Part shown: positions 4,056 through 48,513 of the stretch, in pieces
Position numbering within the stretch: the stretch's first letter is position 1
How the letters are laid out: each line of letters opens with the position of its first letter
DNA from: Bacilli bacterium
GTDB lineage: Bacteria > Bacillota_I > Bacilli_A > ML615J-28 > CAG-698
Assembly: GCA_050953045.1 (NCBI GenBank)
Contig: JBMNLY010000001.1
Span: forward strand, 74,947-138,946
Length of the DNA stretch: 64,000 bases
Reading direction: 5' to 3'
Position numbers and translations under genes: made by a program
The notes under the pieces: generated by a model
What the model saw: the letters and a program-made list of their open reading frames with translations, nothing else
Databases searched by the model: none
Told to the model about the DNA's origin: nothing

Positions 4056-5030
4056 ATGAATATTTATGTAAAATCCTTTTTATATAGTTTTATAATTGCG
4101 ATATTTTTATTTATTTTTTTTATTCCTTTACTTAGAAGAATAAAATTCGGTCAAACAATCAGAAAGGAAGGGCCGAAGGATCATTACAGTAAAGCAGGAA
4201 CCCCGACAATGGGCGGAATTGTGATCATCCTAGCGACCGTAATCAGTTTTCTTTATTTAAGGTTAAAAGAAATTGAGATTGACAAACATTATATTTTGCT
4301 TTTGTTAATGCCTTTAATTCTTTACGGTATTCTAGGTTTTATTGATGATTATTTAATTGTTGTGAAAAAAAACAATCAAGGTCTTACTTCCCGAACCAAA
4401 CTCTTCTTTCAAATTATCTGGGCAGCGTTTTATTTTTATGTGTTTTTGGATAAAGGTTTAAGTTCGGTGGTAAATATTTTTGGGTGGAAAGTGGATTTAA
4501 AATGGGGCTACGGTATTTTGATTCTCTTGATGCTGATTTCCTCAAGCAATGCGGTTAATTTAAGCGACGGTTTGGATGGACTTGCAGGAGGTTTAATCAT
4601 TATTGCGCTCGGTGTGATTATTATTTTAAGCAGATATATTGAAAAAGAAGAAATTCTAATCTTTTCGCTTTGTTTACTGGGAGCGGTTCTTGCTTTCCTT
4701 TGTTATAATTTTAAACCAGCAAAAATTATTATGGGTGATACAGGATCGCTTGCCTTGGGAGCGAGTCTTGCTAATCTTTTTATTCTTTTAAAAATGGAAG
4801 TTTTGCTTTTGGTTGTCGGACTTGTTTTTATAATAGAAACTATCTCGGTAATAATTCAGGTATTCTATTTCAAAATTACAAAAGGAAAAAGAATTTTCCT
4901 GATGGCACCTTTGCATCATCATTACGAACTAAAAGGCTATAGCGAAACCGAAATTGATGCCGGCTTTTGGATTCTTGGAATTCTTTTTGGTCTTCTTGGC
5001 TTAATCCTCGGAATAACATTGTTAGGGTGA
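4056..5030 (+). CDS. mraY: Phospho-N-acetylmuramoyl-pentapeptide transferase
   Basis: 324 aa, polytopic membrane protein. Conserved MraY blocks (…GTPTMGG…, …DDxxD-like IDDYLIV…, HHHYELKG). Confidence 0.9.
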   Translation: MNIYVKSFLYSFIIAIFLFIFFIPLLRRIKFGQTIRKEGPKDHYSKAGTPTMGGIVIILATVISFLYLRLKEIEIDKHYILLLLMPLILYGILGFIDDYLIVVKKNNQGLTSRTKLFFQIIWAAFYFYVFLDKGLSSVVNIFGWKVDLKWGYGILILLMLISSSNAVNLSDGLDGLAGGLIIIALGVIIILSRYIEKEEILIFSLCLLGAVLAFLCYNFKPAKIIMGDTGSLALGASLANLFILLKMEVLLLVVGLVFIIETISVIIQVFYFKITKGKRIFLMAPLHHHYELKGYSETEIDAGFWILGILFGLLGLILGITLLG

Positions 5031-6292
5031 TAGCAATCAAATATTTATTATTAGGTTATGGAAAAAGTAATCGGTCGTTAGAAAAGTTTTTTGCTACAAA
5101 GGGGATATACTTTCAAATTTATGATGACTTTCTTTCGGAAAAAAGAATTGAGGTTGATTTTAATGGTTTCGATTGTGTTGTAAAAAGTGGGGGGATCAAA
5201 AACGACCACTGGATACTCGATATAGCCCGGAAACTTAATAAAGAAATCATTTCCGATTTGGAACTCTTTTACTTATATAATCAAGAAAAAACTTTTATTA
5301 CGGTTACCGGAACCAATGGTAAAACCACAACTGTAAATCTACTTAATTATTTACTTCCGGAATTTGATCTTGGCGGCAATGTCGGTCTACCACTATTTGA
5401 TTATTGTGATTCTAAAAAAAATATTATTATTGAAGCCTCAAGTTTTATGTTGGAATATACAAACTCCTATCGTTCAAAGATAAATGTTATTTTAAATATT
5501 GAACCCAATCATTTGGATTATCATTTACATTTTTCTGATTATCTAAATGCAAAACTGAAGTTAATAAAGAACGCTGTTTCAAATGATTATCTTGTTTATA
5601 ATGCTGATGATCCCGTATTAACAAAAGTTGTTCGTAGTTACAATCTTTATAAAATTCCTTTCTCGAAAGTAAAAAAGAATGGGATTTTTATTTCTGAAAA
5701 TAATGTTTATTATAAAGGAAAATTAGTGTTTAAACCGGTAAATTTAAAACTTCAAGGCGAGCATAATTTAGAAAATATCGCTGCCGCAATCGGTGCTGTT
5801 CTTTGTTATAATCCTCAATATCCTGATTTTTCAAGAATTAATGCCTTCAATCCTTTGGCGCATCGGCTTGAATATCTTGGTAAAATCGGAAAGATTGAAG
5901 TTTATAATGATTCAAAAGCAACGAACCTCACAGCTTTAAAAACCTCGCTTGCTACATTTAAAAACAAAAAAGTTATTTTGATTTGTGGTGGTAAAAGAAG
6001 AAGAGAAAACTATGGTACTTTAGATGATTATCTTTCTAGTTTGGATTTAGTGCTGGTAAACGGCGAAAACAAAGAGACTTTATTAGAGTATTTTCAAGGA
6101 AAAGGAATTAAATGTTATGTTTTTTTAAATCTTCAAAACCTTTTAACTGAACTAAAAACTTATCTTAAAAACCAAGACGTTTTGCTTTTTTCGCCGGGAG
6201 CAGTCAGTTATGATCAGTTTCAAAATTTTGAAGAAAGAGGGAATTATTTTAAGGATTTTATTAAAGAATTTTTAACAGAGAATAATAATTAA
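5027..6292 (+). CDS. murD: UDP-N-acetylmuramoylalanine--D-glutamate ligase
   Basis: GTG start overlaps the mraY stop. N-terminal Rossmann GYGKS and Mur-ligase P-loop VTGTNGKTTT. Confidence 0.85.
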   Translation: MIAIKYLLLGYGKSNRSLEKFFATKGIYFQIYDDFLSEKRIEVDFNGFDCVVKSGGIKNDHWILDIARKLNKEIISDLELFYLYNQEKTFITVTGTNGKTTTVNLLNYLLPEFDLGGNVGLPLFDYCDSKKNIIIEASSFMLEYTNSYRSKINVILNIEPNHLDYHLHFSDYLNAKLKLIKNAVSNDYLVYNADDPVLTKVVRSYNLYKIPFSKVKKNGIFISENNVYYKGKLVFKPVNLKLQGEHNLENIAAAIGAVLCYNPQYPDFSRINAFNPLAHRLEYLGKIGKIEVYNDSKATNLTALKTSLATFKNKKVILICGGKRRRENYGTLDDYLSSLDLVLVNGENKETLLEYFQGKGIKCYVFLNLQNLLTELKTYLKNQDVLLFSPGAVSYDQFQNFEERGNYFKDFIKEFLTENNN

Positions 6293-6988: not shown

Positions 6989-8860
6989 ATGTATTCACAT
7001 GGATTTCTTAAAGTAGCCGCCGCTTCTCACAAAACCAAACTCGGCGATTCGATGTATAATGTAAAAGAGATGCTTGAGATTTTAAAAGAAGCTAAGAAGA
7101 AAGGCGCTGCTCTAATTTGTTTTCCGGAATTATGCATTACCGGCTATTCCGTCGGTGATATGTTGTTTCAAAGATACCTTTATCTGGATTCTTTAAACGC
7201 GATTAAATATCTTCTAGATAATAATCCATTTCCCGGAGTTGTTATTTTTGGCTCCTATGTGATTATTAACGATACGCTTTATAATTGCAGTTTTGTTATT
7301 CAAAATAAAAAAATTTTAGGAATAATTCCGAAAACTTTCCTGCCCCATACCAATGAGTTTTATGAAAGCCGCTGGTTTGCTTCCGGAAACAATTTAATCA
7401 AAGATTTAAAGAATATTAAATTTTTGGGTCAAAATGTCCCTTTTGGAAAACTGCTTTTTGAAAATGAAAATCGTGATGTCATCTTCGGTGCCGAAATCTG
7501 CGGCGATGTTTGGGCTCCAACTTCACCGAACGAAAAATTGTTTGCGAATGGGGCGTTGATTGTATTAAATTCCAGCGCTTCCCCTGCTCATATTGGTAAG
7601 AAAGAAAAAAGACATTTGTTGACCCAAAGCACAACGATGAAGTTCAACTCTGCTTATGTCTATGTTTCCAATAATGCGAGTGAATCTACAAGCGAAGTTG
7701 TTTTTAGTTCGCATTTGATTATTGCTGAAGACGGAAATATCATCAGCGAATACGATCGCATTACCTTTGAAAACAATATTATCTACGGCGATATCGATAT
7801 AAAAAAACTTCATTTCTTACGTCGTAATAATAGTTATTATAAACAAACCCAAGCCCTAGCTCGTGATGTTGATTTCCAATATGTAAAGTTTGAACTAGAA
7901 GAAAACGCGGAATATGCGTTTGAGGAACTGCCGGAAAGATTACCCTTTGTTCCGAAAAAACGAGCTGATTTGGAACGAATCACGATGATTCAAGGCGCAA
8001 GTATTCGAAAAAGACTTGATTATGTGGGAACAGAAAAGGTCGTCCTTGGTGTCAGTGGCGGTTTGGATTCCACGTTGGCTTTGCTTTCTTTAGTTCATGC
8101 TTATGATGAAGCCGAAATTGATCGAAAAAATATTATTGCTGTAACAATGCCTTCAGCAGAAACCAGCAAACGGACTTATGAGAATGCGAAAGCGTTAATC
8201 GAGAAGCTGAAATGCGCCTTTAAAGAAATCAGAATTGATTTAGAAGTACGAAGGCAGTTAGAATTAATCAATCATTCAACAGAAAAAGATACAACTTATG
8301 AAAATATTCAGGCAAGAATTCGGACTACTACGCTGATGAATCTTGCGAACCAAGAAAAAGCCGTGATGATTGGAACCACGGATATGAGCGAAATTGCTCT
8401 TGGCTGGTCGACATTCGGCGGTGATCAAACCGGAATGTACGGAATCAATGCCGGACTTCCGAAAACTGTCGTCCGTGAGGTTGTAAAATACTATCAAGAA
8501 ATCTTCCCGGATGTAAAAGATATAATTGACGATATTCTAAAGACGCCTATTTCTCCAGAACTTACCGGTAGTAACCAAAAAACAGAAGACCTAATCGGCA
8601 AATTTGAAATCAACGATTTTATTCTCTATCACTTCTTGGTCAACGGTGATGATTTTGAACGTGTCAGTTATTTACTAACTAAAGCATTCGGTTTAAACGG
8701 TAATGAAGCCCGTGAATATGTAAATAATTTTTCGAATCGTTTCTTTACCCAACAGTATAAACGTTTATCGATGCCGGAAGGAGTTAAGATAATGGCTGTT
8801 TCACTTTCTCCAAGAAGCGAATTAAAACTTAGTGGAGACCATTATCCACCTAAAATCTAA
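6989..8860 (+). CDS. nadE: Glutamine-dependent NAD+ synthetase (N-terminal nitrilase domain plus NAD synthetase domain)
   Basis: 623 aa. N-terminal CN-hydrolase region. PP-loop SGGLDS at the start of the synthetase domain. Confidence 0.9.
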   Translation: MYSHGFLKVAAASHKTKLGDSMYNVKEMLEILKEAKKKGAALICFPELCITGYSVGDMLFQRYLYLDSLNAIKYLLDNNPFPGVVIFGSYVIINDTLYNCSFVIQNKKILGIIPKTFLPHTNEFYESRWFASGNNLIKDLKNIKFLGQNVPFGKLLFENENRDVIFGAEICGDVWAPTSPNEKLFANGALIVLNSSASPAHIGKKEKRHLLTQSTTMKFNSAYVYVSNNASESTSEVVFSSHLIIAEDGNIISEYDRITFENNIIYGDIDIKKLHFLRRNNSYYKQTQALARDVDFQYVKFELEENAEYAFEELPERLPFVPKKRADLERITMIQGASIRKRLDYVGTEKVVLGVSGGLDSTLALLSLVHAYDEAEIDRKNIIAVTMPSAETSKRTYENAKALIEKLKCAFKEIRIDLEVRRQLELINHSTEKDTTYENIQARIRTTTLMNLANQEKAVMIGTTDMSEIALGWSTFGGDQTGMYGINAGLPKTVVREVVKYYQEIFPDVKDIIDDILKTPISPELTGSNQKTEDLIGKFEINDFILYHFLVNGDDFERVSYLLTKAFGLNGNEAREYVNNFSNRFFTQQYKRLSMPEGVKIMAVSLSPRSELKLSGDHYPPKI

Positions 8861-8874
8861 GCGACTGATATTTT

Positions 8875-8898
8875 GCCAAGCAATGCTTGGCTTTTTTT
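8875..8898 (+). terminator. Rho-independent terminator
   Basis: GCCAAGC-AAT-GCTTGGC followed by TTTTTTT. Confidence 0.6.
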
Positions 8899-9125
8899 AT
8901 TTAGATAGTATCATTATAAATTTTTGTTGTTACTATCGAAATTGTTCGAATAAACAGAAAGTTTGCGTTAAGTTTGTTTTCGACAAATTTTTCAAGAACT
9001 CGCTGACATTTTTCTTCAAAAAAAAAATATTCTCTCGTCACGCTTCTACAAATTCTTCAATTCTTTTTTCGTATAATGATTGCAGTTATATGTAGGTGAA
9101 GTACGTCTTTTGTATCATTTCAAAA

Positions 9126-9155
9126 AACAGCTTTTGGGGGAGAGCTGTTTTTTTA
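9126..9155 (+). terminator. Second rho-independent terminator upstream of the giant gene's promoter
   Basis: AACAGCTTT...AGAGCTGTT stem (one G-U pair) followed by TTTTTTT. Confidence 0.45.
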
Positions 9156-9222
9156 TTAAATCTCGTTACTTAGCATATTTTTATGATATAATATACACAC
9201 AACACATTCAAAGGAGACGGAG

Positions 9223-12200
9223 ATGGATTTCGATTTTGACTCAATAATACAGTACTTTAATATAGGAATCATTACGATTTTAGTTAGTGGAGCTCTCCTT
9301 GGCTTTCTGAGAGGCTTATTTAAATCCGGTTATAATTTATTGGTTTTTGTTGCTTTGTTATTAACTGGTTGGTTTTTAAGCCCAATTATCGTCAGGAATC
9401 TTATGGATTTTGATATATCGAAATATTATTCAATTAATTTCCGAGGAATCGATATTACAAGCATTAATGCAACAATTCCCGGGATTATTGATAATCTTGT
9501 TCCGCAATTTGCGGGTTTGGTAACGCCGGGCTCAAGCGCTTATTTGCTTGTTCAAGCGCTGATTTTTATGGTTTTAAGAATTGTGGTTATGATTCTTTGG
9601 CTGATTTTAATGGGAACGGTTTTTAAATTTATCTTTTGGATTATCTATTTAATCATTAAACCCAAAGCAAAGTCGAAAAACGGAAAGAAAGTTGGAAAAG
9701 GGCTTGTTTCCCGTTTTGGCGGCTTAGCGGTCGGGACTGTTCATGCTTTGCTGGTTGTCTTTCTCTTCAGCATTGCCCTTTCCGGTTTAACTTCAATTGG
9801 TAGTTCTCTGGTTGAGATGTTACCGGAAACAGAACCGGAAGTACAAGAAACCTATCTTTTGGTTTTAAACGAAGAGGCAGCGACCTTACAAGCACAAATA
9901 CCTGAATTAGAGGCTTACGAAGAAGTGTTTAGTTTTATGGCTTCCTATCGGGAGACATTTTCAGGTAAAATTTCTTCCTTCATTAAGATTGGTAAAGATC
10001 CGGCCGATGAATATTTATTTGATGAATTGTTTTCCTTAAAAGTTCGAAGTCATAAGGTAAAACTAAAATCAGAATTACAGACGGCCTTAAGAGCTTATGC
10101 GTTGATTGTAGACAATATTGAAGGGGAAATCACTATAGATAGTATCGCTTCCTTGGATAGAGAGATTCTTGAAGATATTTTTGAAGAAATCTCGAAGTTG
10201 AAACTAATTCAAATCGCCGTTCCGATTGGTGTGGAATATGCTTATCAAAGCGATTTGTTGAACTTTTTAACTGAAGAAGAATTTGCGGAAGCGTATGAAG
10301 ATTTGTTAGAAATTGATTTTAGTGAAGAAATTAAAAATTTAGGAAATGCCTTTATTACCGGGCTTGAACTCGGCCTCTTAAATGGTGAAAATAAGCTTGA
10401 TTTTTATTTAAAACTTGACGGCGAGAAAGTCGAAGATTTATTTACTGCTTTAGGCGAACTTAAGTCGGTTGATACGGTTGCGCCGATTGGCCTTGGTTTT
10501 TTATTGAAACAAATAAAAAGTAATTTAGAACCGCTCGGTATTGATTCCGCTACTTTAGATTTAAAAGATATCACCTGGAGTTCAGAACTGGCAAACCTCG
10601 GCAAAATTTTTAATGCTTTTGTTGCCTTAGGAATTTCTTATGAAAATGAAAAGTTGACTCTTAGTGATATTACCGACGATGGAATCAATGCCTTTAGTAT
10701 CGCTGTTTTTAATTCTAAATTCCTAACCAATAACAATAATGCCTTAGCAAAGGTTATTATTAACATCTTGCCGGACGATTATCGTTCTGTTCTTACAATT
10801 GAAAATTTTGAAAAAGAAGATCTTAGTTCCTTATTGTCCTTAGCAAAAATTATGGCTGATGCTGGGCTTTTAGAAGACGATCTAAATGTTCCTACTTTGC
10901 TTTCTGAGGGTAATATTGATAAAATTGCTGATGCCATCAGCAAATCCAAATTGCTCAGTGCCAATGTCAGCAATCTTTTAAAACTCCTTCTTGACCAGAT
11001 GGATTTAGGTTTTGAAATCTCGGAGTCCAGTTTGGAAATGAACTGGTACGGCGAGCCCGGCAAAACCGAAATCAAGGCTTTATTTACAGCTGCGCGTACG
11101 CTTTATGATTTAGGTCTTTCCGGAGATGATTTCTTAACCAATCTCAATCCGGAATCGATCGATGATCTGACAGAAAAGGTTACTGATTCCGATGTTCTGA
11201 TGAGCAATATCGGAAATATGATAGATTATTTGTTTGTAGAAGGAGACTTTTTAGGAGATCTCACAATCGATACCAGCTCTGTTGCTGATATAGATTGGAA
11301 GAGCGACGAAGGCCGTGCTGAATTTAGAAACATTATGCGTGCTGCCAGCACGATTGTAGAAGCTAATTTACACAACAATCCTGAATTTGAAACGCTCAGT
11401 GATGGCACGGAAGATGTTAACGAAGACGGCGTTGTTGATGAAAAAGATAATTTGATCGGAAGGCTTGCGGAAAGCTTATCTTCATCAATTCTGATTAAAA
11501 ACAATCTCAGTAATATCATCTCTCAAGCGGTTCCCGAGCAAACAGGCGATCTTAAGATCATATTTTTTGATGATCCTGATGATTGGACTGAACTTGAAAT
11601 TGAATCAATGCTGCTTTCCATGAAGATTATCACGAAGAAGGAAAAACTTCCCGACGATTTATTTAACCTAACTGATGCTGAACTAGATATAATTTTAAGT
11701 TCGCTTTTGGTCAGCAGATCAATTGTTCAGAATTTAGAAGAAATGACAGAACCCGAGGGTAAACTCTACGGTTTAATAATTATAGAAAATGTTAACGAAG
11801 AAGATTGGTATGACCGTTTTGATGGCGAAGATAGAATTTATGACGGCGAACTAAGACGGCTTTTCAATTCCGGAAAAATCTTGCTCGGAGAAAATCCTGA
11901 TTTTGATGATTCCAATAACCTCGTTTCTTTAAACCGCATTCTTGAAATAGAAGATGAGGAAATGGATAAACTTGTTCAAAGCACTGTTTTAAGAGATTCA
12001 ATTGCGAACAAATTAATTGAAAAGAGCGAAGAAGATGCCGACTTAGAAGTGAACCTGGCAATGGGGGATCCTTCTTGGACGAATGAAATCAAAAGATTAA
12101 TTAAAGCAACCAAGATTCTGCTCGGCGATGATGCCGATTTGGATAATATTAACCTAGATATTAATACTGTTAAGTCTCTAAATGATAGCGATATTGATGT

Positions 12201-14451
12201 GGTAATAGCTTCCATTATAATCAGTGATACGATTATCAAAAAGCTTGTTGATATTGGAGCAGATGCAGAAGGTAGTTTGGTTGTTCGTTATGAAAAGAAT
12301 GACCCTGCTTGGCATGGAAGTCAAGAAAACCCAGGAGAATTGAAAAGATTTCTGACTGCAGTCAATATCTTGCTTGATGAGGATGATGATCTGAACAATC
12401 CTGATGTAATCAGTATTGATCGGATTACAGAGTTGACAGAAGAAGAACTTGATACTTTAGGTAATTCTTATCTTATTGTTGATACGGCGGTAGAACATCT
12501 AGAAGAAATGACGGAACCCGAAGGCTCTCTTCATCAAACGCTATATTTACCGGAAATCACAAAAGATGAATATTATGGATCAACCGGTGAATTCAAAAAC
12601 TTCATGCTTGCCATCCAACACATTCTTAAAGAAAATACCGCTCCGGACGAGAAGTTAGAAGATTTAAAACACATTTCAATATCCTCATTAACCGGAGATA
12701 ACCAAAAAATAGTCTTGGCGTCTAGAGTTGTAAAAGAAACGATAATTCGTAACATTGAGATTGAAGCCGATAAACAAGCAGTTATTAAAATTGCTCCCGA
12801 ACTTAAACGAGACGGCCCGGATTATCAAGAAGGAATTTGGGACAATGAACTTCCCAATCTTCTGGATGCAATTAGCATCATCTTAGGTGAGGATGCTATT
12901 CTTGATGAAATTAATGTTTCCGCAAATGATTTTCTCGCTTTAAGCGATTCGGAAATTGAAATCATTTTAGATTCAAGGATTGTCAGTCATACTGCTGCTA
13001 AAACAATTGAAGAAAAAAGTAAAGATGACGCTTCCTTAATCAAATTACCTCAGGACCTTGATCCTAAGCAACCGGAATATGATGAATCTCTTTGGTATGG
13101 AGCTGAAGGCGAACTTGCGAAAGCGTTAAAAGCTTTGCGTGAATTAGAATTTTCAGATTTTAACAGCGACATTAAGATAACTGCTCTGTTTGAAGAAGCA
13201 AGAGGTACAACAGAAGAAGTCATTTTAGCATCTCGAGTTGTAGAAGCATCTGTTATCAACAAGATTGAAACCGAAGCAGCTCTTGGCGGTATGTTATACG
13301 GTACTTTAATAATTCCTGAAGGCGTCGTATGGAGTAAATCCGATAATGACAAAGGTGAACTTAGACGCTTCTTACTGGCGATAGAGCTTGTTCTTGGTGG
13401 CGAAGAGTTTGAAAATGCAACTTTCAAAGTCGAAAAATTCTTCGGAGAAGATCAAGAAACCTTACTAGATTCACAAATTGTAGAAGCATCTGTTATCAAC
13501 AAGATTGAAACCGAAGCAGCTCTCGGCGGTATGTTATACGGTACTTTAATTATTCCTGAAGGTGTTGTTTGGAGTAGAACAGAAAACGATGAAGGTGAAC
13601 TGAGACGCTTCTTACTAGCAATAGAGCTTGTTCTTGATGGTGGCGAGTTTGAGTATGCAACTTTTGAAGTTGATAAATTCCTCGGCGAAGACCAAGAAAC
13701 CTTACTTGCATCCCAAATCGTAGAAGCTTCCGCTATCTCCTACATCCGGAAATCCGATAAACTTATTAAACCTGATCCGGATGATGTGGCTACTTATTAT
13801 TATTTTGAAGATAATGTTTTGGTTTGGGATGGCGAAGACGGCGAACTCAGACGCTTCTTGAATGGGATTAAGACATTACTTGGAACTTCAACTTTTGCTG
13901 ATTTCGAGTTTAAGATGGATAATCTCTTAAATGTTGATTTTGTTAGTGCCTTAGAATCCCGCGTTTTAGAAGCCACTTTGACTGATATGGTAATGGGCTT
14001 GATTGACGGCGGCGTCTTGGCTGGTTTGATTAAAGAACCCGACAATGGTTATCAATGGTATCATCATGCGACAAGTACCGATCCTCTTGTTGGCGAAATC
14101 CGTAGTGGCGAGTTTAAACTCGACAATAATCCTGATTTCAGCCAGTACAGTGATCTTTCCGGATTCTTAAAAGCTATTCAAGCAATGAATGCGGCCGGAT
14201 TAAGCTACGATAATATTGATAAAGATACGATCGCGGAAGCGGATTCTGAGGAACTCGCAGATGCCTTCTGTGATTATTCGCGGGTAATCGGCGGTTCAAT
14301 CGCTAAGATGCTTAACTATGTGTTAAAAGATGTCGTGCATCCGTTAAAACCGGAATTTGATGACGAGGACATTAATTATCAAGAGAAAGGTAAAGTAATT
14401 TTAGCTCTTGAAACCTTTAAGTATTTTGTAAAGATTCAATTGGGAGAATAG
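9223..14451 (+). CDS. Giant (1742 aa) membrane protein: N-terminal CvpA-like 4-TM domain fused to a very acidic, degenerate-repeat region
   Basis: The first roughly 190 aa have 4 TM helices and the CvpA-type start (ILVSGALLGFLRGLFKSGYNLLVFVALLLTGWFLSP). The remaining roughly 1550 aa are D/E-rich with recurring modules (…GEL[KR]RFL.A…LL(G/D)(E/D)D.D.D…, …SR(V/I)V…I…IE…, LEEMTEPEG twice). Extended -10 (TGATATAAT) at 9184-9192 and RBS AGGAGA at 9211-9216. Confidence 0.7.
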   Translation: MDFDFDSIIQYFNIGIITILVSGALLGFLRGLFKSGYNLLVFVALLLTGWFLSPIIVRNLMDFDISKYYSINFRGIDITSINATIPGIIDNLVPQFAGLVTPGSSAYLLVQALIFMVLRIVVMILWLILMGTVFKFIFWIIYLIIKPKAKSKNGKKVGKGLVSRFGGLAVGTVHALLVVFLFSIALSGLTSIGSSLVEMLPETEPEVQETYLLVLNEEAATLQAQIPELEAYEEVFSFMASYRETFSGKISSFIKIGKDPADEYLFDELFSLKVRSHKVKLKSELQTALRAYALIVDNIEGEITIDSIASLDREILEDIFEEISKLKLIQIAVPIGVEYAYQSDLLNFLTEEEFAEAYEDLLEIDFSEEIKNLGNAFITGLELGLLNGENKLDFYLKLDGEKVEDLFTALGELKSVDTVAPIGLGFLLKQIKSNLEPLGIDSATLDLKDITWSSELANLGKIFNAFVALGISYENEKLTLSDITDDGINAFSIAVFNSKFLTNNNNALAKVIINILPDDYRSVLTIENFEKEDLSSLLSLAKIMADAGLLEDDLNVPTLLSEGNIDKIADAISKSKLLSANVSNLLKLLLDQMDLGFEISESSLEMNWYGEPGKTEIKALFTAARTLYDLGLSGDDFLTNLNPESIDDLTEKVTDSDVLMSNIGNMIDYLFVEGDFLGDLTIDTSSVADIDWKSDEGRAEFRNIMRAASTIVEANLHNNPEFETLSDGTEDVNEDGVVDEKDNLIGRLAESLSSSILIKNNLSNIISQAVPEQTGDLKIIFFDDPDDWTELEIESMLLSMKIITKKEKLPDDLFNLTDAELDIILSSLLVSRSIVQNLEEMTEPEGKLYGLIIIENVNEEDWYDRFDGEDRIYDGELRRLFNSGKILLGENPDFDDSNNLVSLNRILEIEDEEMDKLVQSTVLRDSIANKLIEKSEEDADLEVNLAMGDPSWTNEIKRLIKATKILLGDDADLDNINLDINTVKSLNDSDIDVVIASIIISDTIIKKLVDIGADAEGSLVVRYEKNDPAWHGSQENPGELKRFLTAVNILLDEDDDLNNPDVISIDRITELTEEELDTLGNSYLIVDTAVEHLEEMTEPEGSLHQTLYLPEITKDEYYGSTGEFKNFMLAIQHILKENTAPDEKLEDLKHISISSLTGDNQKIVLASRVVKETIIRNIEIEADKQAVIKIAPELKRDGPDYQEGIWDNELPNLLDAISIILGEDAILDEINVSANDFLALSDSEIEIILDSRIVSHTAAKTIEEKSKDDASLIKLPQDLDPKQPEYDESLWYGAEGELAKALKALRELEFSDFNSDIKITALFEEARGTTEEVILASRVVEASVINKIETEAALGGMLYGTLIIPEGVVWSKSDNDKGELRRFLLAIELVLGGEEFENATFKVEKFFGEDQETLLDSQIVEASVINKIETEAALGGMLYGTLIIPEGVVWSRTENDEGELRRFLLAIELVLDGGEFEYATFEVDKFLGEDQETLLASQIVEASAISYIRKSDKLIKPDPDDVATYYYFEDNVLVWDGEDGELRRFLNGIKTLLGTSTFADFEFKMDNLLNVDFVSALESRVLEATLTDMVMGLIDGGVLAGLIKEPDNGYQWYHHATSTDPLVGEIRSGEFKLDNNPDFSQYSDLSGFLKAIQAMNAAGLSYDNIDKDTIAEADSEELADAFCDYSRVIGGSIAKMLNYVLKDVVHPLKPEFDDEDINYQEKGKVILALETFKYFVKIQLGE
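13237..13760 (+). repeat. Near-identical 240-bp (80-aa) tandem repeats inside the giant gene (two full units plus a partial third)
   Basis: The unit starting ATTGTAGAAGCATCTGTTATCAACAAGATTGAAACCGAAGCAGCTCT recurs at 13237, 13477 and 13717 (period 240) with about 90% nucleotide identity. The protein repeat is IVEASVINKIETEAALGGMLYGTLIIPEGVVWS…GELRRFLLAIELVL…. Confidence 0.8.
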
Positions 14452-14463
14452 AGAGGTGAAGAG

Positions 14464-14787
14464 ATGAAACTGATTATTGCGATAGTTTCGAATGATGACA
14501 GTACATCATTGATGAAAGAGTTGGTAAAATGCAAATATTTTGTAACGAAGTTAGCTTCAAGCGGCGGTTTTCTTAAAAAAGGCAATACAACGCTGATGAT
14601 CGGAGCGAAAGCAGAAGATGTTGAGCCGATTATCAAAATCATTACTGATTTTTCGCGAACCAGAAACGAATTTGTTCCGAGTTCGATAATTAGCGAATAC
14701 GGAATAATTCAATCGACTCCGATTGAAGTTACAGTCGGCGGAGCCACGCTCTTCATTATTGATGTTGAAGACTTTAGAAAGATTTAA
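14464..14787 (+). CDS. darA: Cyclic-di-AMP receptor protein DarA/PstA (PII-like, DUF970/YaaQ family)
   Basis: 107 aa. MKLIIAIVSNDDSTSLMKELVKCKYFVTKLASSGGFLKKGNTTLMIGA…VGGATLFIIDVEDF aligns along its length with B. subtilis YaaQ/DarA as recalled (MKLIVAIVQDQDS…ATKLATTGGFLRAGNTTFLCG…VGGATVFVMPVD). Confidence 0.8.
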   Translation: MKLIIAIVSNDDSTSLMKELVKCKYFVTKLASSGGFLKKGNTTLMIGAKAEDVEPIIKIITDFSRTRNEFVPSSIISEYGIIQSTPIEVTVGGATLFIIDVEDFRKI

Positions 14788-14795
14788 AAGAAAAA

Positions 14796-14818
14796 GGGGT
14801 CGGTTTGCCGATCCCTTT
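14796..14818. terminator. Bidirectional hairpin terminator between convergent darA and the anti-sigma gene
   Basis: GGGGTCGG-TTTG-CCGATCCC (one G-U pair) with A-run upstream and T-run downstream. Confidence 0.5.
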
Positions 14819-14819
14819 A

Positions 14820-15746
14820 TCATTCTTGGATGTTAAAAATATAGATTTCATTATCAAGGTTCACTTCATATATTATGGAATCATTCTGTTTGGTTGCGGA
14901 AATGAACATCACTCGAATTGGATTTAGGTTGGTTCCTATGTTCTGACCCGAACTAAATAGTCCGTAGGTGATGCTGTAACCACCCTGATTATTTTCTTTA
15001 ATCAAGTAGGTTGTTTTTCTGATAATATCAGTTATTTCGATATCAGTAGCCGATGTTATGATCTTGGTATTGCCTGTTAAAACGCCGTCCTGATAAGTTT
15101 TGATTTCCATGTCAGTTTCTTTACGAATTTCAATATAGGAGTTTTCTCCTGTAGACATTTTCAGAGTCAACCGATTAGCTTCCAAATATCCAGTTATTGG
15201 GTAGGTAGCAATGCTATCGGTGATTTCAATTTCATACTCGATCCTCTCTTTATTTGTTGTTCTTAAAGAAATTGATAAGTCGTTTGTTTGGTATGTTTTT
15301 TGATATTCATTTTTTGGATTTGTTTCTTGAAACTCGGGCGAATTAAAATAATTTATCGCGACTGTTTTCAAATAAAGATCCAGATACTTAATTTCTTCTA
15401 AAAGAAATGAGTCGACACCTTCGCTTTCTGAAACAATCTCCCTATCTTCCAAGAACTGGTAGAGAGTTAAAGAGGGAAGCAGTAAAGAGGGCGCTCCTTG
15501 AAGAGAATTTGAGCTCTCCGGAGTATTGGTATTGTCATAGGAGGTAGGTAGTATTATTAAAGCAAAAAGCAGGATAAAAACGGAGGCTAATCTGAAAACA
15601 GGAATTAACCAAGGTTTTCTTTTTGGTTTGACTGGAATATCTTCTGAAATTTGTGCTTGCTTTAAAATAGCCTTTAAATCAAGGTCATGAATTTCTTTGT
15701 CTATCTCATCTTGGATTATTGAAAAGATCTTTTTCCGCATTCCCAT
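14820..15746 (-). CDS. Putative anti-sigma factor (single-pass membrane protein, extracytoplasmic C-terminal domain)
   Basis: Lies immediately 3' of the ECF sigma gene on the minus strand. Cytoplasmic N-terminus, TM segment (LIPVFRLASVFILLFALIILP), roughly 240-aa C-terminal domain. Confidence 0.5.
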   Translation of the reverse strand: MGMRKKIFSIIQDEIDKEIHDLDLKAILKQAQISEDIPVKPKRKPWLIPVFRLASVFILLFALIILPTSYDNTNTPESSNSLQGAPSLLLPSLTLYQFLEDREIVSESEGVDSFLLEEIKYLDLYLKTVAINYFNSPEFQETNPKNEYQKTYQTNDLSISLRTTNKERIEYEIEITDSIATYPITGYLEANRLTLKMSTGENSYIEIRKETDMEIKTYQDGVLTGNTKIITSATDIEITDIIRKTTYLIKENNQGGYSITYGLFSSGQNIGTNLNPIRVMFISATKQNDSIIYEVNLDNEIYIFNIQE

Positions 15747-16268
15747 TCACCTCTCTTTAAAATAGGATTTAACTTTCTTTAAGGCTTTTTGGTAAAGCCA
15801 GAGGACAGTTCCGAGCGGAAGGTCGAGGATTTGGGCAATCTCCCGATGTTTAAAACGTTGGATTGCATAAAGCATAAAGATGCTTCTTTCTTTAGCGTTT
15901 AAAAGTTCTAAGACTTCCGATAGAATGGCGCTCTTTATGCCTTCTGGAGCGACTGTTTCCACAATCTCTTCGGGAGCGATTATTTCTTCTCGTTTTCTTT
16001 TGCGGTAATAATCGATTGCTTTGTTTCTTGCAATCGTAAGCAACCAAGTTTTGAAATTACTTCCGGGCTTATATGTGCTGATTTTCTCGAGCATCGTAAG
16101 ATATGTTTCTTGCATAATATCATGAGCAAGACTGCGGTCTTTAATGATTGAAAGAATTAAGGCATAGACCGCATGCTTTGTATCATGATAGATTAAGGCA
16201 AAAGTTCCTTCGTCTTTGTTTTTTAAAGCCTCGATGTGGAAATCGTAGTTCATCATTAAAGCCTCCAA
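15747..16268 (-). CDS. ECF-type RNA polymerase sigma factor (sigma-70 regions 2 and 4)
   Basis: 173 aa. Region 2 (…IMQETYLTMLEKISTY…) and a region 4 HTH (…REIAQILDLPLGTVLWLYQKALKKV…). Confidence 0.8.
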   Translation of the reverse strand: MEALMMNYDFHIEALKNKDEGTFALIYHDTKHAVYALILSIIKDRSLAHDIMQETYLTMLEKISTYKPGSNFKTWLLTIARNKAIDYYRKRKREEIIAPEEIVETVAPEGIKSAILSEVLELLNAKERSIFMLYAIQRFKHREIAQILDLPLGTVLWLYQKALKKVKSYFKER

Positions 16269-16465: not shown

Positions 16466-17653
16466 TTGTTATGTTACAATACATTTGAGACCAAACCTTG
16501 TATAAATAACAAAAGTGATTTATACTCTCTAATGAAAGAAGATTCACCACATGATTCTTCACGAGAGGAGTATAAATCACATGGCTATTATATCACATAA
16601 GTTTCATGATATCAAAACAAAATTTCATGCTGTCTCTACATATCGTACCGGTCGTTATTCTGTTTATCACATTTGCCTGAAATACCATATCTCTAAGGCC
16701 TCTTTAATGCGCTGGAATAAAGCATTTGATGGTACTATTGAATCTCTTAAAGAGAAAAGTCGTAGACCACACACACCTCATCCTAGTATCCATACGGAAA
16801 CAGAAATATCTAAGATCCTTAGTTTGATTAAACGTAATTCTAATATCGGTCTGACTGAACTCTATACTAAACTCAGACAGCAAATAGGCTATTCTAGGCA
16901 TTATTGCAGCTTATATCGTGTTTTGATTAGATTAGGTTATTACGTTAATAAGTCTAAGATAAGAAAGAAATACAAGCCCAAAAAATATCACACACCAGAG
17001 AAACTTGGTGAAAAGTTTCAAATTGATGTTAAGTACGTTCCGACAGAATGTAAAGCCGATCCCAGAGACGATAATCGTTATTATCAATATACTGCAATAG
17101 ATGAAGCTTCCAGACAACGCTTCATGTATATATACAAAGAGCGTTCTTCTTATAGCTCAGTTGATTTTCTACGTAAAGCAATTGCTTTCTTTGGTTATGT
17201 TCCAAGAATTATTCAAACTGATAATGGCTTGGAATTTAGGCATTTTGGTGAAACAAATAGAATTCATCCTTTTGATTTAGGGTGTCAAAAACTCGGAATT
17301 ATACATAAAACCATTAAACCAAGAACTCCCAGACATAACGGAAAGGTAGAAAGAAGTCATCGAACTGATAATGAACGTTTTTACTCAAATCTAAAATTCT
17401 ATAGTTATGAAGATCTTCAGAATCAAATGAAAAGATATGTTTATAGATCTAACCGGATAGGGATGACACCCTTAAAGTTTAAAACTCCGATAGAAAAACG
17501 TAATGAACTCATGGAATCGAATATGGTAAATTGTTTATGTTTCGTTTGATTTCAAAATTGCCCATTATGCTAAGGGGGACACATTCCCCCTTAAACCCCT
17601 TTGGTTTATCTTCTTTTATTCTTTTTTGGTCTCAAATCATTTACAATCATACA
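16466..17653 (+). mobile_element. IS element copy 1 (1188 bp, single-ORF DDE transposase; IS481/rve-like; family undetermined)
   Basis: Boundaries come from comparison with the identical copy at 44152..45339. Imperfect terminal inverted repeats TGTTATGTTACAATACATTTGAGACCAAA / TGTATGATTGTAAATGATTTGAGACCAAA. Flanked by a 24-25-bp direct repeat GATCCAAAGGAAAATTATGATATT(T) at 16442-16465 and 17654-17678. Confidence 0.8.
16551..17549 (+). CDS. DDE transposase (N-terminal HTH plus rve integrase core)
   Basis: 332 aa. rve-core signatures QTDNGLEF and HNGKVERSHRT. True start may be the downstream ATG (MAIISHKF…). Confidence 0.85.
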   Translation: MILHERSINHMAIISHKFHDIKTKFHAVSTYRTGRYSVYHICLKYHISKASLMRWNKAFDGTIESLKEKSRRPHTPHPSIHTETEISKILSLIKRNSNIGLTELYTKLRQQIGYSRHYCSLYRVLIRLGYYVNKSKIRKKYKPKKYHTPEKLGEKFQIDVKYVPTECKADPRDDNRYYQYTAIDEASRQRFMYIYKERSSYSSVDFLRKAIAFFGYVPRIIQTDNGLEFRHFGETNRIHPFDLGCQKLGIIHKTIKPRTPRHNGKVERSHRTDNERFYSNLKFYSYEDLQNQMKRYVYRSNRIGMTPLKFKTPIEKRNELMESNMVNCLCFV

Positions 17654-17728: not shown

Positions 17729-17802
17729 GGCTCCATAGCCAAGTGGTAAGGCAACGGTCTGCAACACCGTGAGCACCAGTTCAAATCTGGTTGGAGCCTC
17801 CA
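17729..17802 (+). tRNA. tRNA-Cys (anticodon GCA)
   Basis: Cloverleaf: acceptor GGCTCCA/TGGAGCC, 3-bp D stem, anticodon stem ACGGT/ACCGT with loop CTGCAAC, T arm ACCAG-TTCAAAT-CTGGT, encoded CCA. Extended -10 (TGTTATAAT) at 17703-17711 just upstream. Confidence 0.8.
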
Positions 17803-28899: not shown

Positions 28900-29098
28900 A
28901 AAAAATTGCATAACACAATTAGTTTAGAGGAAGCGGTGTAGATGAGTACAGCTTGGAGGAGACATCCAGTGAAGGGTTGGAAAGGCAACCACCGCCGAAC
29001 GGGTAACGTAGGTATACGTTAGTCGTGGGGATTTAGGGAATACCTAAGTCACTCCTACTTTATTACAAAGTAGAGGCGCTAACTTCAAAATTATTATA
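28900..29098 (+). promoter_or_regulatory. Lysine riboswitch-like (L-box) leader RNA
   Basis: Ordered matches to recalled L-box cores: AGAGGAAGCGG…GUAGAUGAGUA (P1/P2 loop-E), GGUUGGAAAGGCAACCACCGCCGAACGGGU (the CGCCGAAG junction), an AACGUAGGUAUACGUU hairpin, GGGGAUUUAGGGAAUACCUAAGUCAC (the GGGGAAUACC…CUGUCAC region), a CCUACUUU-AUUAC-AAAGUAGAGG hairpin, and a 3' P1 strand. An intrinsic terminator follows. Confidence 0.55.
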
Positions 29099-29109: not shown

Positions 29110-29133
29110 GGCGTCTTGTGTGACGCTTTTTTT
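29110..29133 (+). terminator. Riboswitch expression-platform terminator
   Basis: GGCGTC-TTGTGT-GACGC followed by TTTTTTT, 30 nt upstream of the transporter RBS. Confidence 0.65.
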
Positions 29134-29163
29134 GTTTTTCTAAGACAAAAAGGAGAGAAAAAA

Positions 29164-29985
29164 ATGAAAAAGGTTTTAATTTTAACAGTTTTGTTATTAG
29201 TCTTTGTACTTGTGGGCTGTAACGACAAAGAAAGAAATTTCGATATTCCTCGTGAGGAACAATTTATTGTCGGCTTAGAAGCCAATTATCAACCCTTTAA
29301 TTGGACGGAAGATTTTTCAAGTCCCTTTAACCATCCGATCAATAATTTTTCTGGTAAATATGCTGACGGATACGATGTTCAAATCGCAAGAGCTGTTGCA
29401 GCTAGTCTAGGAAAAGTTTTGGTAATTGAAAAATTGGATTGGGATGCTTTAATTCCTTCCCTTGAAGCAAAGAAGATTGATGCAATTATTGCCGGTATGA
29501 GTCCGACTGAAGACCGGAAACAATCGGTTAACTTTACGGAAGAATACTACAAAAGCAAACATGTTGTCTTAGTCCTGGCTGACGGTGAATATACGAATGC
29601 GAAAAGCTTGAATGATTTTGCTGGAGCAACAATCGTCAGTCAACAAGGAACAATCTATGACGATTTGGTTCCGCAGCTTGTCGGTGCTACTCATGGAACA
29701 CCTTTAAAATCAGTTCCTGATATCTTAACCGGTATGCTCGGCGGAAGAATTGACGGAACCATCTTAGAGCTTCCTGTTGCTTTAGGTATCACTGCAAGCA
29801 ATCCGGAATTCAAGTATGTGGAATTGGATCCTGGTTTTGAAGTATCCGAAACCGATGTTGTTGTTTCGATTGCAGTTCGTTTGGAAGAAACCGAATTGGT
29901 TGAGGCCATCAATAAAATCTTGGAAGGAATCAGCGAGGACGTCCGTCTGAAACTAATGGAAGATGCAGTGGGTAGAGCTGAATGA
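29164..29985 (+). CDS. Amino-acid ABC transporter substrate-binding lipoprotein (family 3 SBP); putative lysine-binding from riboswitch context
   Basis: ATG after AAGGAGAG. Lipoprotein signal peptide ending in LVGC. Polar amino-acid SBP fold. Confidence 0.8.
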   Translation: MKKVLILTVLLLVFVLVGCNDKERNFDIPREEQFIVGLEANYQPFNWTEDFSSPFNHPINNFSGKYADGYDVQIARAVAASLGKVLVIEKLDWDALIPSLEAKKIDAIIAGMSPTEDRKQSVNFTEEYYKSKHVVLVLADGEYTNAKSLNDFAGATIVSQQGTIYDDLVPQLVGATHGTPLKSVPDILTGMLGGRIDGTILELPVALGITASNPEFKYVELDPGFEVSETDVVVSIAVRLEETELVEAINKILEGISEDVRLKLMEDAVGRAE

Positions 29986-31094
29986 GTAAAGAGGGCTTTC
30001 GCTTTCGGAACGTAACACTATTTCTGCTTGGAATTATTACATTATTTTTTGCGATAAAGGTTTTAAATCAGACTATTACTCCGGGTGAAATATCAATTAC
30101 ATACTATGCGAAGATAATCTTCGGGTATTTCGCCCTTCTCCTTTCCGGAGCCGGAATCTTTTTAGCTCTTTGGTTACTGATCGGTAAACCCAAACAAAAA
30201 ATATATTTTCAGATTCGGAAAATATTATTGATTGTAAGTATCACCTTTATCTGCTTTTATGTGATAGAATTTATTGCTTTTCCGGTAATAAACTCTTTAA
30301 CTAGAGTTTCAAAACTTTCGAAAATTCCTGCCAAAGAATTTTTCTTAGATTCGATGATGTTCATTGTTTTAGACTATGCGGGAGATTTTCTCAAGGGAGT
30401 ATTCATGACTTTAGAATTATCCCTGACAGGTACCGTAATCGGTTTGCTTTTTGGAATGGTTATGGTAGTTTTTCGGATTATGAAGGTTAATCCTCAGGAC
30501 AATGAAATCGTCGCCTTTTTTAAGAAACTTGGAATCGGCGCTTCAAAACTTTATATTAATGTTTTTCGCGGGACACCGATGATTGTGCAGGCAGTAATTT
30601 TATATTATCTGCTTCCGAGTGTGCTTTCTAGTTGGTTGGATATTCCAATCAGTGAAATCGATAAAATTTTAACGATTTCTGTCTCCGGAATCATTATTGT
30701 CTCTTTGAATACAACTGCCTATTTAGCGGAAGTTTTGCGGGGAGGTATTGAATCAGTCGATAAAGGTCAACTTGAGGCAGCCAGAAGTCTCGGTTTAAGT
30801 TATCCTCAAAGTATGCTTTCGGTTGTCTTTCCGCAGGCGATTAAAAACTCCCTTCCCGCCATCTGCAATGAATTTATCATCAATATCAAAGACACTTCGG
30901 TCCTAAATGTAATCGGGGTTGCGGAATTATTCTTTGTTGCGAATGCGGCTAAGCATAAATACTATCGCACTTATGAACCGTTCATTATTGTTGCTTTGAT
31001 TTACCTCTTCTTAACAATGACAACTTCAAAACTATTAGGAATCTTGGAAAGGAAACTGAACTTGCCGGCTAAAGGCCTGCCGAGTTCTAATTAA
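29982..31094 (+). CDS. Amino-acid ABC transporter permease (HisM/GlnP family) with an extra N-terminal TM extension
   Basis: EAA loop EAARSLGLSYPQSMLSVVFPQAIKNSLPAI. 370 aa. Confidence 0.8.
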   Translation: MSKEGFRFRNVTLFLLGIITLFFAIKVLNQTITPGEISITYYAKIIFGYFALLLSGAGIFLALWLLIGKPKQKIYFQIRKILLIVSITFICFYVIEFIAFPVINSLTRVSKLSKIPAKEFFLDSMMFIVLDYAGDFLKGVFMTLELSLTGTVIGLLFGMVMVVFRIMKVNPQDNEIVAFFKKLGIGASKLYINVFRGTPMIVQAVILYYLLPSVLSSWLDIPISEIDKILTISVSGIIIVSLNTTAYLAEVLRGGIESVDKGQLEAARSLGLSYPQSMLSVVFPQAIKNSLPAICNEFIINIKDTSVLNVIGVAELFFVANAAKHKYYRTYEPFIIVALIYLFLTMTTSKLLGILERKLNLPAKGLPSSN

Positions 31095-31102
31095 GGAGGT
31101 AA

Positions 31103-31840
31103 ATGATGCCGATAATTAAAATACGCAATCTAAAAAAAGCATTCGGAGATCAAGTAGTTTTAAAAGATATTAATTTGGATGTCTTAGAAGGCGAAGTTGT
31201 TTGTTTGATTGGTTCTTCCGGATCCGGAAAAAGTACGCTACTTCGTTGTTTAAATCTACTGGAAACACCGGACGGAGGCAGCATCTATTTTAACGGAGTT
31301 GATATATTAAACACCAAAATTAATTTAAATAAACTTCGCACCGAACTGGGCATGGTTTTCCAAAACTTTAATTTATTTAATAATAAAACTGTTTTAGGAA
31401 ACCTGATTTTAGCACCGATGAAGGTCTTAAAACTCAGCAAAGAAGAAGCGACTAATCGCGCACTTGAGAATTTACGAAAAGTCGGTATGGAAGAGTTTGC
31501 TGACAGAGCACCGGCGACACTTTCCGGTGGTCAAAAGCAAAGAGTCGCAATTGCTCGCGCTCTTTCTATGAATCCGAAGGTTTTACTTTTCGATGAACCA
31601 ACCTCCGCACTCGACCCGGAAATGGTCGGAGAAGTACTGCTCGTTATGAAAGACCTTGCAGCTTCAGGAATGACGATGATTGTCGTCACTCATGAAATGG
31701 CTTTTGCACGCGAAGTAGCTTCTCGGGTTATCTTTATGGATCAAGGAATCATCCTTGAAGCAGGAAAGCCAGAAGAAATTTTAGAAAATCCTCAAGAAGC
31801 CAGAACACAAGAATTTTTAAAAAGAATTTTAAATCAATAG
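31103..31840 (+). CDS. Amino-acid ABC transporter ATP-binding protein (GlnQ-like)
   Basis: Walker [10 protein letters not shown], signature [15 protein letters not shown], Walker [12 protein letters not shown]. Confidence 0.9.
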
Positions 31841-34306: not shown

Positions 34307-34678
34307 ATGGGAATTTTCAAAAAAAGGAAAAAAAGCAATAAAATTGAATTTTCGGAATATAATAATAAGGAAAAAAGTGGAAAAAATCGTTCCAGTCTTC
34401 TGACCTCTTTTGATCGTATGGAATACAGCATTGTTACCGAAAATTCAAAAGAAACATTATTGAAAATATGTGATACCATTCTGTCCGGAAAAGCCGTACT
34501 TGCAAATTTTGATAAGCTCGATCCCGAGGATGCAAACGAAATGTTGCCTTTCATCTCCGGCGTTGTTTATGCGACCAGAGGGGAAATCTACCGCCTTGAT
34601 GAAAGACTGTTTCTCTTTGGACGCAAAGAAGAATTTGAAGACGGCTCATTATATCAATATGTTGAGGATACAAAATGA
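34307..34678 (+). CDS. sepF: Cell division protein SepF
   Basis: C-terminal SepF core …AVLANFDKLDPEDANEMLPFISGVVYATRGEIYRLDERLFLF… matches the SepF consensus as recalled. Confidence 0.8.
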   Translation: MGIFKKRKKSNKIEFSEYNNKEKSGKNRSSLLTSFDRMEYSIVTENSKETLLKICDTILSGKAVLANFDKLDPEDANEMLPFISGVVYATRGEIYRLDERLFLFGRKEEFEDGSLYQYVEDTK

Positions 34679-34929
34679 CCTTAAGCTTTATAATTAATAT
34701 TATTTATTTCTTACTTTTGCTTTATGGCGGCATTATGTCCTTAAGCATAATTCTTTCCTGGATACCGGGAGCTTTTGAAATCAAATTTTTCCGTCAGCTT
34801 CGAAAAATCAGCGATTGGTATTTGGGACCATTTCGCGGTAAACTGATTGTTGGTGTAATTGATTTTACTCCGATGATTGGTTTAATGATATATAGTTTTA
34901 TTATGAACCTATTAAGCATATGGATTTAA
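34675..34929 (+). CDS. YggT-family small membrane protein
   Basis: 84 aa with two TM helices. Conserved position between sepF and ylmH. Confidence 0.7.
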   Translation: MTLSFIINIIYFLLLLYGGIMSLSIILSWIPGAFEIKFFRQLRKISDWYLGPFRGKLIVGVIDFTPMIGLMIYSFIMNLLSIWI

Positions 34930-48478: not shown

Positions 48479-48513
48479 AATCGGATGGCCTAAATCTTTG
48501 AAATAATCAATTG

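Follow-up and report, generated by a model that had tools for sequence, protein, structure and literature searches.

A DarA-family c-di-AMP receptor gene retained behind the gene of a giant CvpA-like membrane protein in uncultured Acholeplasmataceae-like Bacilli

DarA, also known as PstA, is among the most conserved receptors for cyclic di-AMP (c-di-AMP) in Firmicutes, and according to a review its partner is still unidentified despite extensive efforts (PMC10636490). For proteins of the PII type the most reliable pointer to a target is gene context, as in amtB-glnK and sbtA-sbtB; the classical darA-tmk operon, a housekeeping arrangement, is uninformative in this respect. Here we ask what a darA-family gene signifies that lies directly behind the gene of a giant membrane protein in a 64,000-nucleotide stretch of DNA from a bacterium of the Bacilli (contig JBMNLY010000001.1, positions 74,947 to 138,946; the whole stretch is called the window in the following). 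The receptor is already known in kind, and what is new is the conserved pairing of its gene with that of a giant CvpA-type membrane protein, a variation on the principle that genes of the PII type adjoin those of their membrane targets. By gene neighbourhood and gene trees the pairing appears to be one ancestral cassette that was retained through many rearrangements in a clade of uncultured Acholeplasmataceae-like Bacilli. We regard it as a well-supported lead to a membrane partner of DarA, the evidence being purely comparative-genomic, drawn from uncultured organisms and tracing back to one ancestral event, and the function that we propose from it is an inference.

The receptor gene and its neighbourhood

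The darA product (N-terminus MKLIIAIV; sequence MKLIIAIVSNDD...DVEDFRKI) is a member of the DarA/PstA family. The Pfam profile PF06153 (CdAMP_rec; gathering cutoff 27 bits) matches it with 118 bits (E 3e-34), residues 1-107 aligning to positions 1-109 of the 109 profile positions, so that the homology over the entire open reading frame (ORF) that a first-pass annotation of this DNA had proposed holds end to end. The NCBIfam equivalog NF058593, "cyclic di-AMP receptor DarA", gives 118.4 bits, short of the strict 140-bit cutoff of that model, and the protein is thus a clear family member yet outside the curated equivalog set. Its nearest solved relatives are Listeria PstA (4RWW), B. subtilis DarA/YaaQ (4RLE), Pediococcus PEPE_1480 (3M05) and S. 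aureus PstA (4D3G, 4WK1), which align at E 6e-20 to 4e-18. Among the c-di-AMP contacts listed by Choi et al. 2015 (PMC4475381), T28, the T-loop residues G34-G-F-L37, N41, the G92-G-A94 kink, T95 and F97 are kept, all of them universal across an alignment of 83 DarA homologues. Arg26 is replaced by Phe and His108 by Arg; Arg26 of PstA is described as dispensable, and Listeria has Gly at that position (PMC4475381). Judged by these residues the ligand site is preserved. NCBI annotates an identical DarA in a metagenome-assembled genome (MAG) labelled "Acholeplasmataceae bacterium".

The gene begins 12 nt behind the stop codon of the giant ORF, its ATG starting at the 13th base past the stop, exactly the distance that had been annotated (Table 1). 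Consensus scans revealed neither a terminator-like site between the two genes, in agreement with the first-pass annotation, nor a promoter-like site on the plus strand in the ~1 kb at the 3' end of the giant gene (13439-14464). On its other side darA is separated from a convergent gene (14820..15746) by a hairpin that abuts the stop codon of that gene and can fold on either strand (plus, -19.8 kcal/mol, z -3.6; minus, -15.7 kcal/mol, z -3.2), which makes it a candidate for the bidirectional terminator suspected there. Upstream of the giant gene a Shine-Dalgarno sequence sits 5' of the ATG (9223) and follows the candidate extended -10 element TGaTATAAT. The leader gave no Rfam match (8850-9260 examined), and the known RNAs across the window, one lysine riboswitch and two tRNAs, all lie outside it; an 87-aa ORF that overlaps the leader (8832-9095) has no family match and is probably spurious. 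The locus is laid out like a bicistronic unit bracketed by terminators, as far as promoters and terminators predicted from consensus can tell, and in the window a single transcript most likely covers both genes. Neither a thymidylate kinase gene (Thymidylate_kin) nor a holB-type gene was found among the window ORFs scanned, in line with the first-pass annotation, which had placed darA outside the yaaQ-yaaR-holB context.

Retention of the gene pair

Conservation of the pair in relatives had been named beforehand as a check of the proposed link, and a family homologue of the giant gene directly followed by darA on the same strand was indeed found in 13 distinct lineages with differing flanks. 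The loci were gathered in three ways, i.e. from the contigs of giant homologues, from similar DarAs, and by an alignment scan of metagenomes with the N-terminal module of the giant protein. Across these lineages the gap between the two genes measures 11-86 nt, the giant proteins comprise 722-2855 aa and are ~25-58% identical to that of the window, and the DarAs are 61-91% identical to the window's DarA.

Close homologues of the giant protein number 15. Starting from giant homologues, darA was found directly 3' of the giant gene in L001 (1837 aa), L002 (1511 aa), L003 (1672 aa) and L005 (1038 aa), and in L004 behind a giant gene split into three ORFs (1349+210+146 aa), all of which match the family profile. 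A family member also lies upstream of darA in L010, L012 and L013, the genome loci whose DarAs are most similar, and on the contigs of P0031, P0014, P0067 and P0084, with giants of 2029, 1672, 2379 and 2296 aa, respectively. In the metagenome scan all loci with a complete close-family gene have darA next (L090-L096, L103-L105), one tandem paralogue excepted, and this set includes both the 2855-aa and the 722-aa version. Samples from anaerobic digesters and biogas plants are rich in members of the clade. Five of the loci, L004, L096, L108, L109 and L110, represent one species with an identical DarA (P0031), in which the giant gene is intact at 2029 aa in some assemblies and split or shortened in others (the three ORFs of L004; 740+791 aa in L109). 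The range in length together with the splits points either way, to repeat-driven length variation of the kind typical for surface proteins or to assembly errors in the repeats.

The surroundings of the pair vary on both sides. Upstream neighbours include nadD-nadE, genes of an ABC sugar transporter next to HAD and NYN genes, FTHFS/GH10/APH, an amino-acid ABC transporter, MFS/HAD and an LPG synthase, and those downstream include pyk, FecCD-Fur, Fic/lactamase-B, a convergent gene without assignment and Wzz-CpsD-CpsB. In L012, L099, L102, L104 and L105 two giant-family paralogues of 1136 aa and 722-725 aa lie ~4.4 kb apart. In L012, L104 and L105 darA is found behind the shorter, downstream 722-aa copy only, which comprises little beyond the CvpA-like module and the adjoining region; the contigs of L099 and L102 stop before the expected darA position. 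In most pair lineages the gap is 11-43 nt long and contains a Shine-Dalgarno sequence only, the shortest gaps of 11-18 nt occurring in L001, L005, L013, L093 and L113.

The company of darA is a different one elsewhere. In a scan of 80 darA loci, with one genome per species, the gene directly upstream is ribF (FAD synthetase) in 16 Acholeplasmataceae including Haploplasma modicum, ychF in 15 Erysipelotrichaceae, tmk in Clostridium, a signal peptidase gene in Fusibacter, and a decarboxylase or further genes in other taxa. For six Firmicutes pstA/darA has been described as invariably located in the tmk operon, sometimes with an Orn/Arg/Lys decarboxylase (PMC4475381). Among the 80 loci the pair-linked and the ribF-linked darA clades have no assembly accession in common, the MAGs being fragmentary. 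The pair-linked DarAs fall into a single clade of a neighbour-joining tree, with the ribF-linked DarAs of Acholeplasmataceae as sister group, and residues specific to the pair-linked clade are M17, K24, S32, S33, M45, A48, I56, S74 and I98. The N-terminal modules yield a tree broadly congruent with that of DarA, and the unlinked 1136-aa paralogue is nested inside the module tree. Given the monophyly of the linked DarAs and the broad agreement of the two trees, the pairing appears to go back to a single ancestral event rather than to repeated association.

The giant protein and a proposed partnership

The N-terminus of the giant protein is, by profile comparison, a divergent CvpA-like module and not a member of the family by Pfam's own threshold: Colicin_V (PF02674; gathering score 29.3 bits) matches the first 200 residues with 18.8 bits (E 0.0017). 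The designation "CvpA-fusion" given in the first-pass annotation is therefore weakly supported for the window protein taken alone and gains support at the family level, where 22 of the 48 relatives scanned match Colicin_V at E<=0.01 (best E 4.9e-9). The window also encodes an ordinary CvpA of 246 aa (56336-57076, plus strand; 75.7 bits with Colicin_V, above the gathering score), i.e. the genome has an ordinary CvpA plus a giant CvpA-like protein, and aligning the profile of the giant family to this ordinary CvpA by hhalign gives a probability of 79% (E 1.6e-5), confined to transmembrane (TM) helices TM1-TM2. The ordinary gene is flanked by genes of a DUF308 protein (55746-56333) and a ZIP metal transporter (57124-57927). 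Searching with a profile built on the first ~300 residues of the giant protein retrieves 1138 cluster representatives from a library of 1.84 billion proteins; among the best 150 of the 1138 the median length is ~1280 aa, and past residue 300 sampled representatives are acidic (D+E 15-24%) and mostly Cys-poor.

In the AlphaFold2 (AF2) model of the module (mean predicted local distance difference test score, pLDDT, 78.7) four long helices are seen, TM1 and TM2 being modelled as one stretch (H5-62), followed by H105-145 and H161-197; TM3 is one unusually long helix of ~40 residues. Loop 1, ~7 residues long (GFLRGLFKS), and the Lys/Arg-rich loop 3 of ~20 residues (KPKAKSKNGKKVGKGLVSRFGG) are predicted to be cytoplasmic. 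Averaged over 133 members the net charge is -1.0 for the N-terminal tail, +1.35 for loop 1, -3.9 for loop 2, +6.9 for loop 3 and -9.3 for the segment past TM4, and loop 3 contains 8.4 Lys+Arg per 20 residues. According to the positive-inside rule these segment charges place loops 1 and 3 in the cytoplasm and everything past TM4 outside. The protein would thus span the membrane four times with both termini extracytoplasmic, which matches the published prediction for CvpA. P0192, a protein of 547 aa from the search for representatives, combines a CvpA-like N-terminal module with a C-terminal Peptidase_M23 domain, and the position of this domain past the module agrees with an extracytoplasmic C-terminus.

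Beyond the module the protein contains degenerate acidic repeats, two of which (aa 1334-1413 and 1415-1493) are nearly identical. An AF2 model of aa 1160-1580 is helical and confident (pLDDT 82.7, predicted template modelling score 0.80); a Foldseek search with it found no fold match in the PDB at E<1, and Pfam and NCBIfam scans of the 1500-aa acidic region found no domain. The predicted external part has an isoelectric point (pI) of 4.2 and a net charge of about -187. With the acidic bulk predicted to be extracytoplasmic, a cytoplasmic DarA could contact only loops 1 and 3. As the two genes have stayed together in 13 lineages whose flanks differ, it is reasonable to assume a functional connection between DarA and the giant protein, as had been suggested from the window alone; the acidic part, to which that suggestion had extended, would not take part in it.

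Based on gene context we tentatively favour an amtB-glnK/sbtA-sbtB-type cassette in which DarA would regulate the CvpA-like membrane module, a reading that we consider quite possible if short of probable. Transcription of the unit would start near the candidate promoter at 9184-9192 and end at the hairpin at 14793-14818. Its first gene would provide a divergent four-TM CvpA-type module that displays a huge polyanionic helical-repeat C-terminal domain outside the cell, and translation of darA, beginning 12 nt past the stop of the giant gene, would rely on a Shine-Dalgarno sequence of its own. The DarA trimer may then dock, in a c-di-AMP-dependent manner, on the cytoplasmic face of the module, i.e. 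on the short loop 1 and the Lys/Arg-rich loop 3. DarB and the genetics of apo-DarA suggest by analogy that ligand-free DarA would probably be the binding form; genetics in strains free of c-di-AMP point to apo-DarA as the active form (PMC10636490). c-di-AMP controls K+ and osmolyte homeostasis (PMC10636490), and the outcome of docking could be that osmotic and K+ status is coupled to the activity of the membrane module, which may be channel-like or envelope-related. Comparisons by HHpred and Phyre2 have related CvpA to channels of the MscS/MscL type (bioRxiv 10.1101/2020.09.25.314492), a likeness that fits the osmotic and K+ role of c-di-AMP. Moreover, PII proteins often bind adjacently encoded membrane transporters, and a transporter has been discussed as possible target of PstA (PMC4475381). 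The proposed regulation is also consistent with darA having stayed with a paralogue reduced to roughly the first 720 residues. A further-reaching version, in which DarA is a dedicated cytoplasmic, c-di-AMP-controlled regulator of the CvpA-type module and the giant polyanionic external domain a cation-binding or turgor-related surface layer with its activity or assembly tuned to K+ and osmotic status, we consider rather unlikely as a whole.

Several observations weigh against regulation of the module by DarA. The argument for an interaction is one of gene context, and the pairing appears to have a single evolutionary origin, so that counting the 13 lineages as 13 independent associations has to be rejected. 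Distant members of the giant family are followed by other genes, namely that of an unrelated small membrane protein in L006/L007 (giant of 2452 aa) and one with a Tex-like-looking N-terminus in L008/L009 (giant of 1660 aa), and where two paralogues occur the 1136-aa copy is without darA. The Lys/Arg-rich loop 3 is also found in members unlinked to darA and was rejected as a feature specific to the linked ones, and the residues specific to the linked DarA clade are few and conservative in nature. In the subclade L002/L003/L095 the gap is 73-86 nt long and holds a TTTACA-17-TATAAT site with 11/12 consensus matches, and the gap of L002 also contains a 14-bp hairpin with a subsequent T-run (-14.5 kcal/mol, z -2.8); these sites are consensus matches, not mapped transcript ends. 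Since they lie between the genes, strict co-transcription, plausible as it is in the window, is not universal, and darA may have its own promoter in this subclade, adjacency being kept even there. Neither a diadenylate cyclase nor other c-di-AMP synthesis genes were found among the ORFs scanned in the window, nor was a c-di-AMP riboswitch found when it was scanned for known RNAs, which makes c-di-AMP production by the organism an assumption. Finally, a preprint of July 2026 (PMC13484208) reports the soluble protein GlnR as a target of PstA in S. aureus, which also partly overtakes the earlier statement that the target of DarA is unknown in model Firmicutes.

This report lends weight to a possible, if rather doubtful, alternative, namely co-expression without contact: darA would ride in the transcription unit of the giant gene, the receptor thereby being produced under shared conditions, e.g. 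envelope or osmotic stress, and would act on soluble targets elsewhere such as a GlnR-type regulator. The bulk of the giant protein being predicted outside the cell fits this picture, and the occurrence of darA behind unrelated genes in other taxa (ribF, ychF, tmk, signal peptidase, Orn/Lys/Arg decarboxylase) implies that many operon partners are tolerated without obvious functional tie. However, the pair persists where the promoter-like site, plus the hairpin of L002, would uncouple transcription, its retention through repeated turnover of the flanks in 13 lineages exceeds what would be expected for convenience of expression, and in the presence of paralogues darA stays at the copy that has been cut to about the first 720 residues.

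The same turnover bears on neutral inherited adjacency, i.e. on the genes having once become neighbours in the ancestor of the clade and not yet having been separated, with no functional link. The single origin of the pairing and the distant family members without darA are in keeping with it, yet both flanks were repeatedly replaced while the 11-86 nt junction is unbroken in all recovered loci and has remained intact across a divergence of the giant proteins down to ~25-30% identity, which renders this explanation improbable. That darA is transcribed independently in the window, from a promoter within the 3' end of the giant gene, the operon being only apparent, we consider just as improbable, for the promoter-like site just 5' of darA in L002, L003 and L095 and the possible need of a PII-like trimer for a higher copy number than that of a 1742-aa protein are opposed by the negative promoter scan of 13439-14464, by a gap of only 12 nt devoid of a hairpin, and by the 11-18 nt gaps of the five relatives named above, which argue for read-through and translational proximity.

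If regulation of the CvpA-like module by DarA holds true, the DarA/PstA family would gain its first membrane target, and a regulatory input would be known for a CvpA protein for the first time. A clade with darA locked to one membrane-protein gene provides a concrete candidate partner, the cytoplasmic loops of the CvpA-type module. CvpA is widespread and has been linked to envelope stress, and a connection between DarA and CvpA would inform both fields; should the interaction extend to ordinary CvpA, it could help to explain the function of DarA in model Firmicutes. Our literature search found no paper that links CvpA and c-di-AMP functionally, the lone co-mention being a transposon-sequencing review that treats both separately, and none on c-di-AMP signalling in Acholeplasma.

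Other features of the window and known systems

Table 1. Features of the darA locus, with positions counted from the first base of the window
Feature	Position	Strand	Basis or remarks
Terminator-like hairpin ending nadE	8875-8891	+	consensus scan
Non-coding leader of the giant gene, 330 nt	8892-9222	+	hairpin with T-run, then TGaTATAAT
Second hairpin with T-run, upstream of the giant gene	9123-9155	+	read from sequence
Candidate extended -10 element TGaTATAAT of the two-gene unit	9184..9192	+	read directly from sequence
Giant gene, 1742 aa	9223..14451	+	ORF translation; pI 4.2, net charge about -180, one Cys
Divergent CvpA-like membrane module, aa 1-200	9223..9822	+	sub-threshold Colicin_V match, hhalign, AF2, loop charges
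~11 tandem degenerate ~80-aa acidic helical repeats, aa 666-1572	11218..13938	+	jackhmmer self-search
Intergenic spacer, 12 nt	14452..14463	+	reads agaggtgaagag; holds the darA Shine-Dalgarno sequence AGAGGTGA
darA/pstA-family gene	14464..14787	+	107-aa PII-like c-di-AMP receptor; PF06153 profile match, PDB relatives, ligand residues
Bidirectional terminator candidate, GC-rich hairpin	14793..14818	both	terminator scan and folding
308-aa single-pass membrane protein, abutting the downstream end of the gene of an extracytoplasmic function (ECF) sigma factor	14820-15746 and 15747-16268	-	308-aa protein without family match

The 308-aa membrane protein encoded next to the ECF sigma factor is probably an anti-sigma factor, with an N-terminal cytoplasmic part of ~45 aa followed by a TM helix. 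In the window these two genes and a copy of an insertion element of the IS481 family lie between darA and pyk; in the syntenic locus L001 darA is followed directly by pyk. A homologue of the sigma factor, 54% identical, is located 4.4 kb from darA in the L003/L111 lineage and none at the other pair loci, and the sigma factor/membrane protein pair was rejected as a recurrent third component of the cassette.

Two tandem MgtE magnesium-transporter paralogues with CBS domains are encoded on the minus strand (50964-52328 and 52341-53702); in B. subtilis MgtE is on the list of proteins that bind c-di-AMP (PMC10636490). The lysine riboswitch (28917-29089, plus strand, 87 bits) is located 5' of an amino-acid ABC transporter operon (SBP_bac_3, permease and ATPase; 29116-31840). 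Mobile elements are represented by two copies of IS481-family transposase genes (16551-17549, plus strand; 44256-45254, minus strand) and a two-ORF element of the IS3 type (47660-49239, minus strand), and the tRNA genes (17729-17799 and 49393-49464) adjoin two of the insertion elements. The window further contains genes for an MraY-type glycosyltransferase, a Mur ligase, SepF and YlmH (4056-6292 and 34307-35624, both plus strand), in a genome labelled Acholeplasmataceae, which suggests that the lineage may make peptidoglycan or keep parts of the division and cell-wall cluster.

Among known proteins the receptor compares best with DarA of B. subtilis and PstA of S. aureus and Listeria monocytogenes (PDB 4RLE, 4D3G/4D3H, 4WK1, 4RWW). 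It has the same size, ~107-109 aa, aligns with them over the full length, and has the same short T-loop with the GGFL motif and the same long B-loop with the GGA kink. In contrast, it carries SS instead of TT before GGFL, in addition to Phe for Arg26 and Arg for His108, and its gene is located behind that of a giant membrane protein and not in the tmk operon of the six Firmicutes (PMC4475381).

The membrane module shares with E. coli CvpA (PF02674) four TM helices, a motif of the G-x-x-R-G type past TM1 and a variable C-terminal extension predicted to be outside. It differs in scoring below the family's gathering score, in its ~40-residue TM3, in the Lys/Arg-rich loop 3 and in the 1500-aa extension of acidic repeats. 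MarP of M. tuberculosis is a CvpA-type four-TM anchor with a periplasmic protease domain, and the architecture of P0192, a module joined to an M23 peptidase, resembles it.

As for the arrangement of the two genes, the closest counterparts are amtB-glnK and sbtA-sbtB, where the PII gene lies directly behind the gene of its membrane target. Here, too, a small gene of the PII superfamily is found directly downstream, on the same strand, of the gene of a polytopic membrane protein, and the adjacency is conserved. SbtB, too, is reported to bind c-di-AMP (PMC8654305). Unlike in those systems, the partner in the window is a CvpA-type four-TM module with a giant external domain and not a characterised transporter, and the complex is a proposal. 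In view of the short T-loop and long B-loop of DarA its mode of docking would differ from that of amtB-glnK and sbtA-sbtB.

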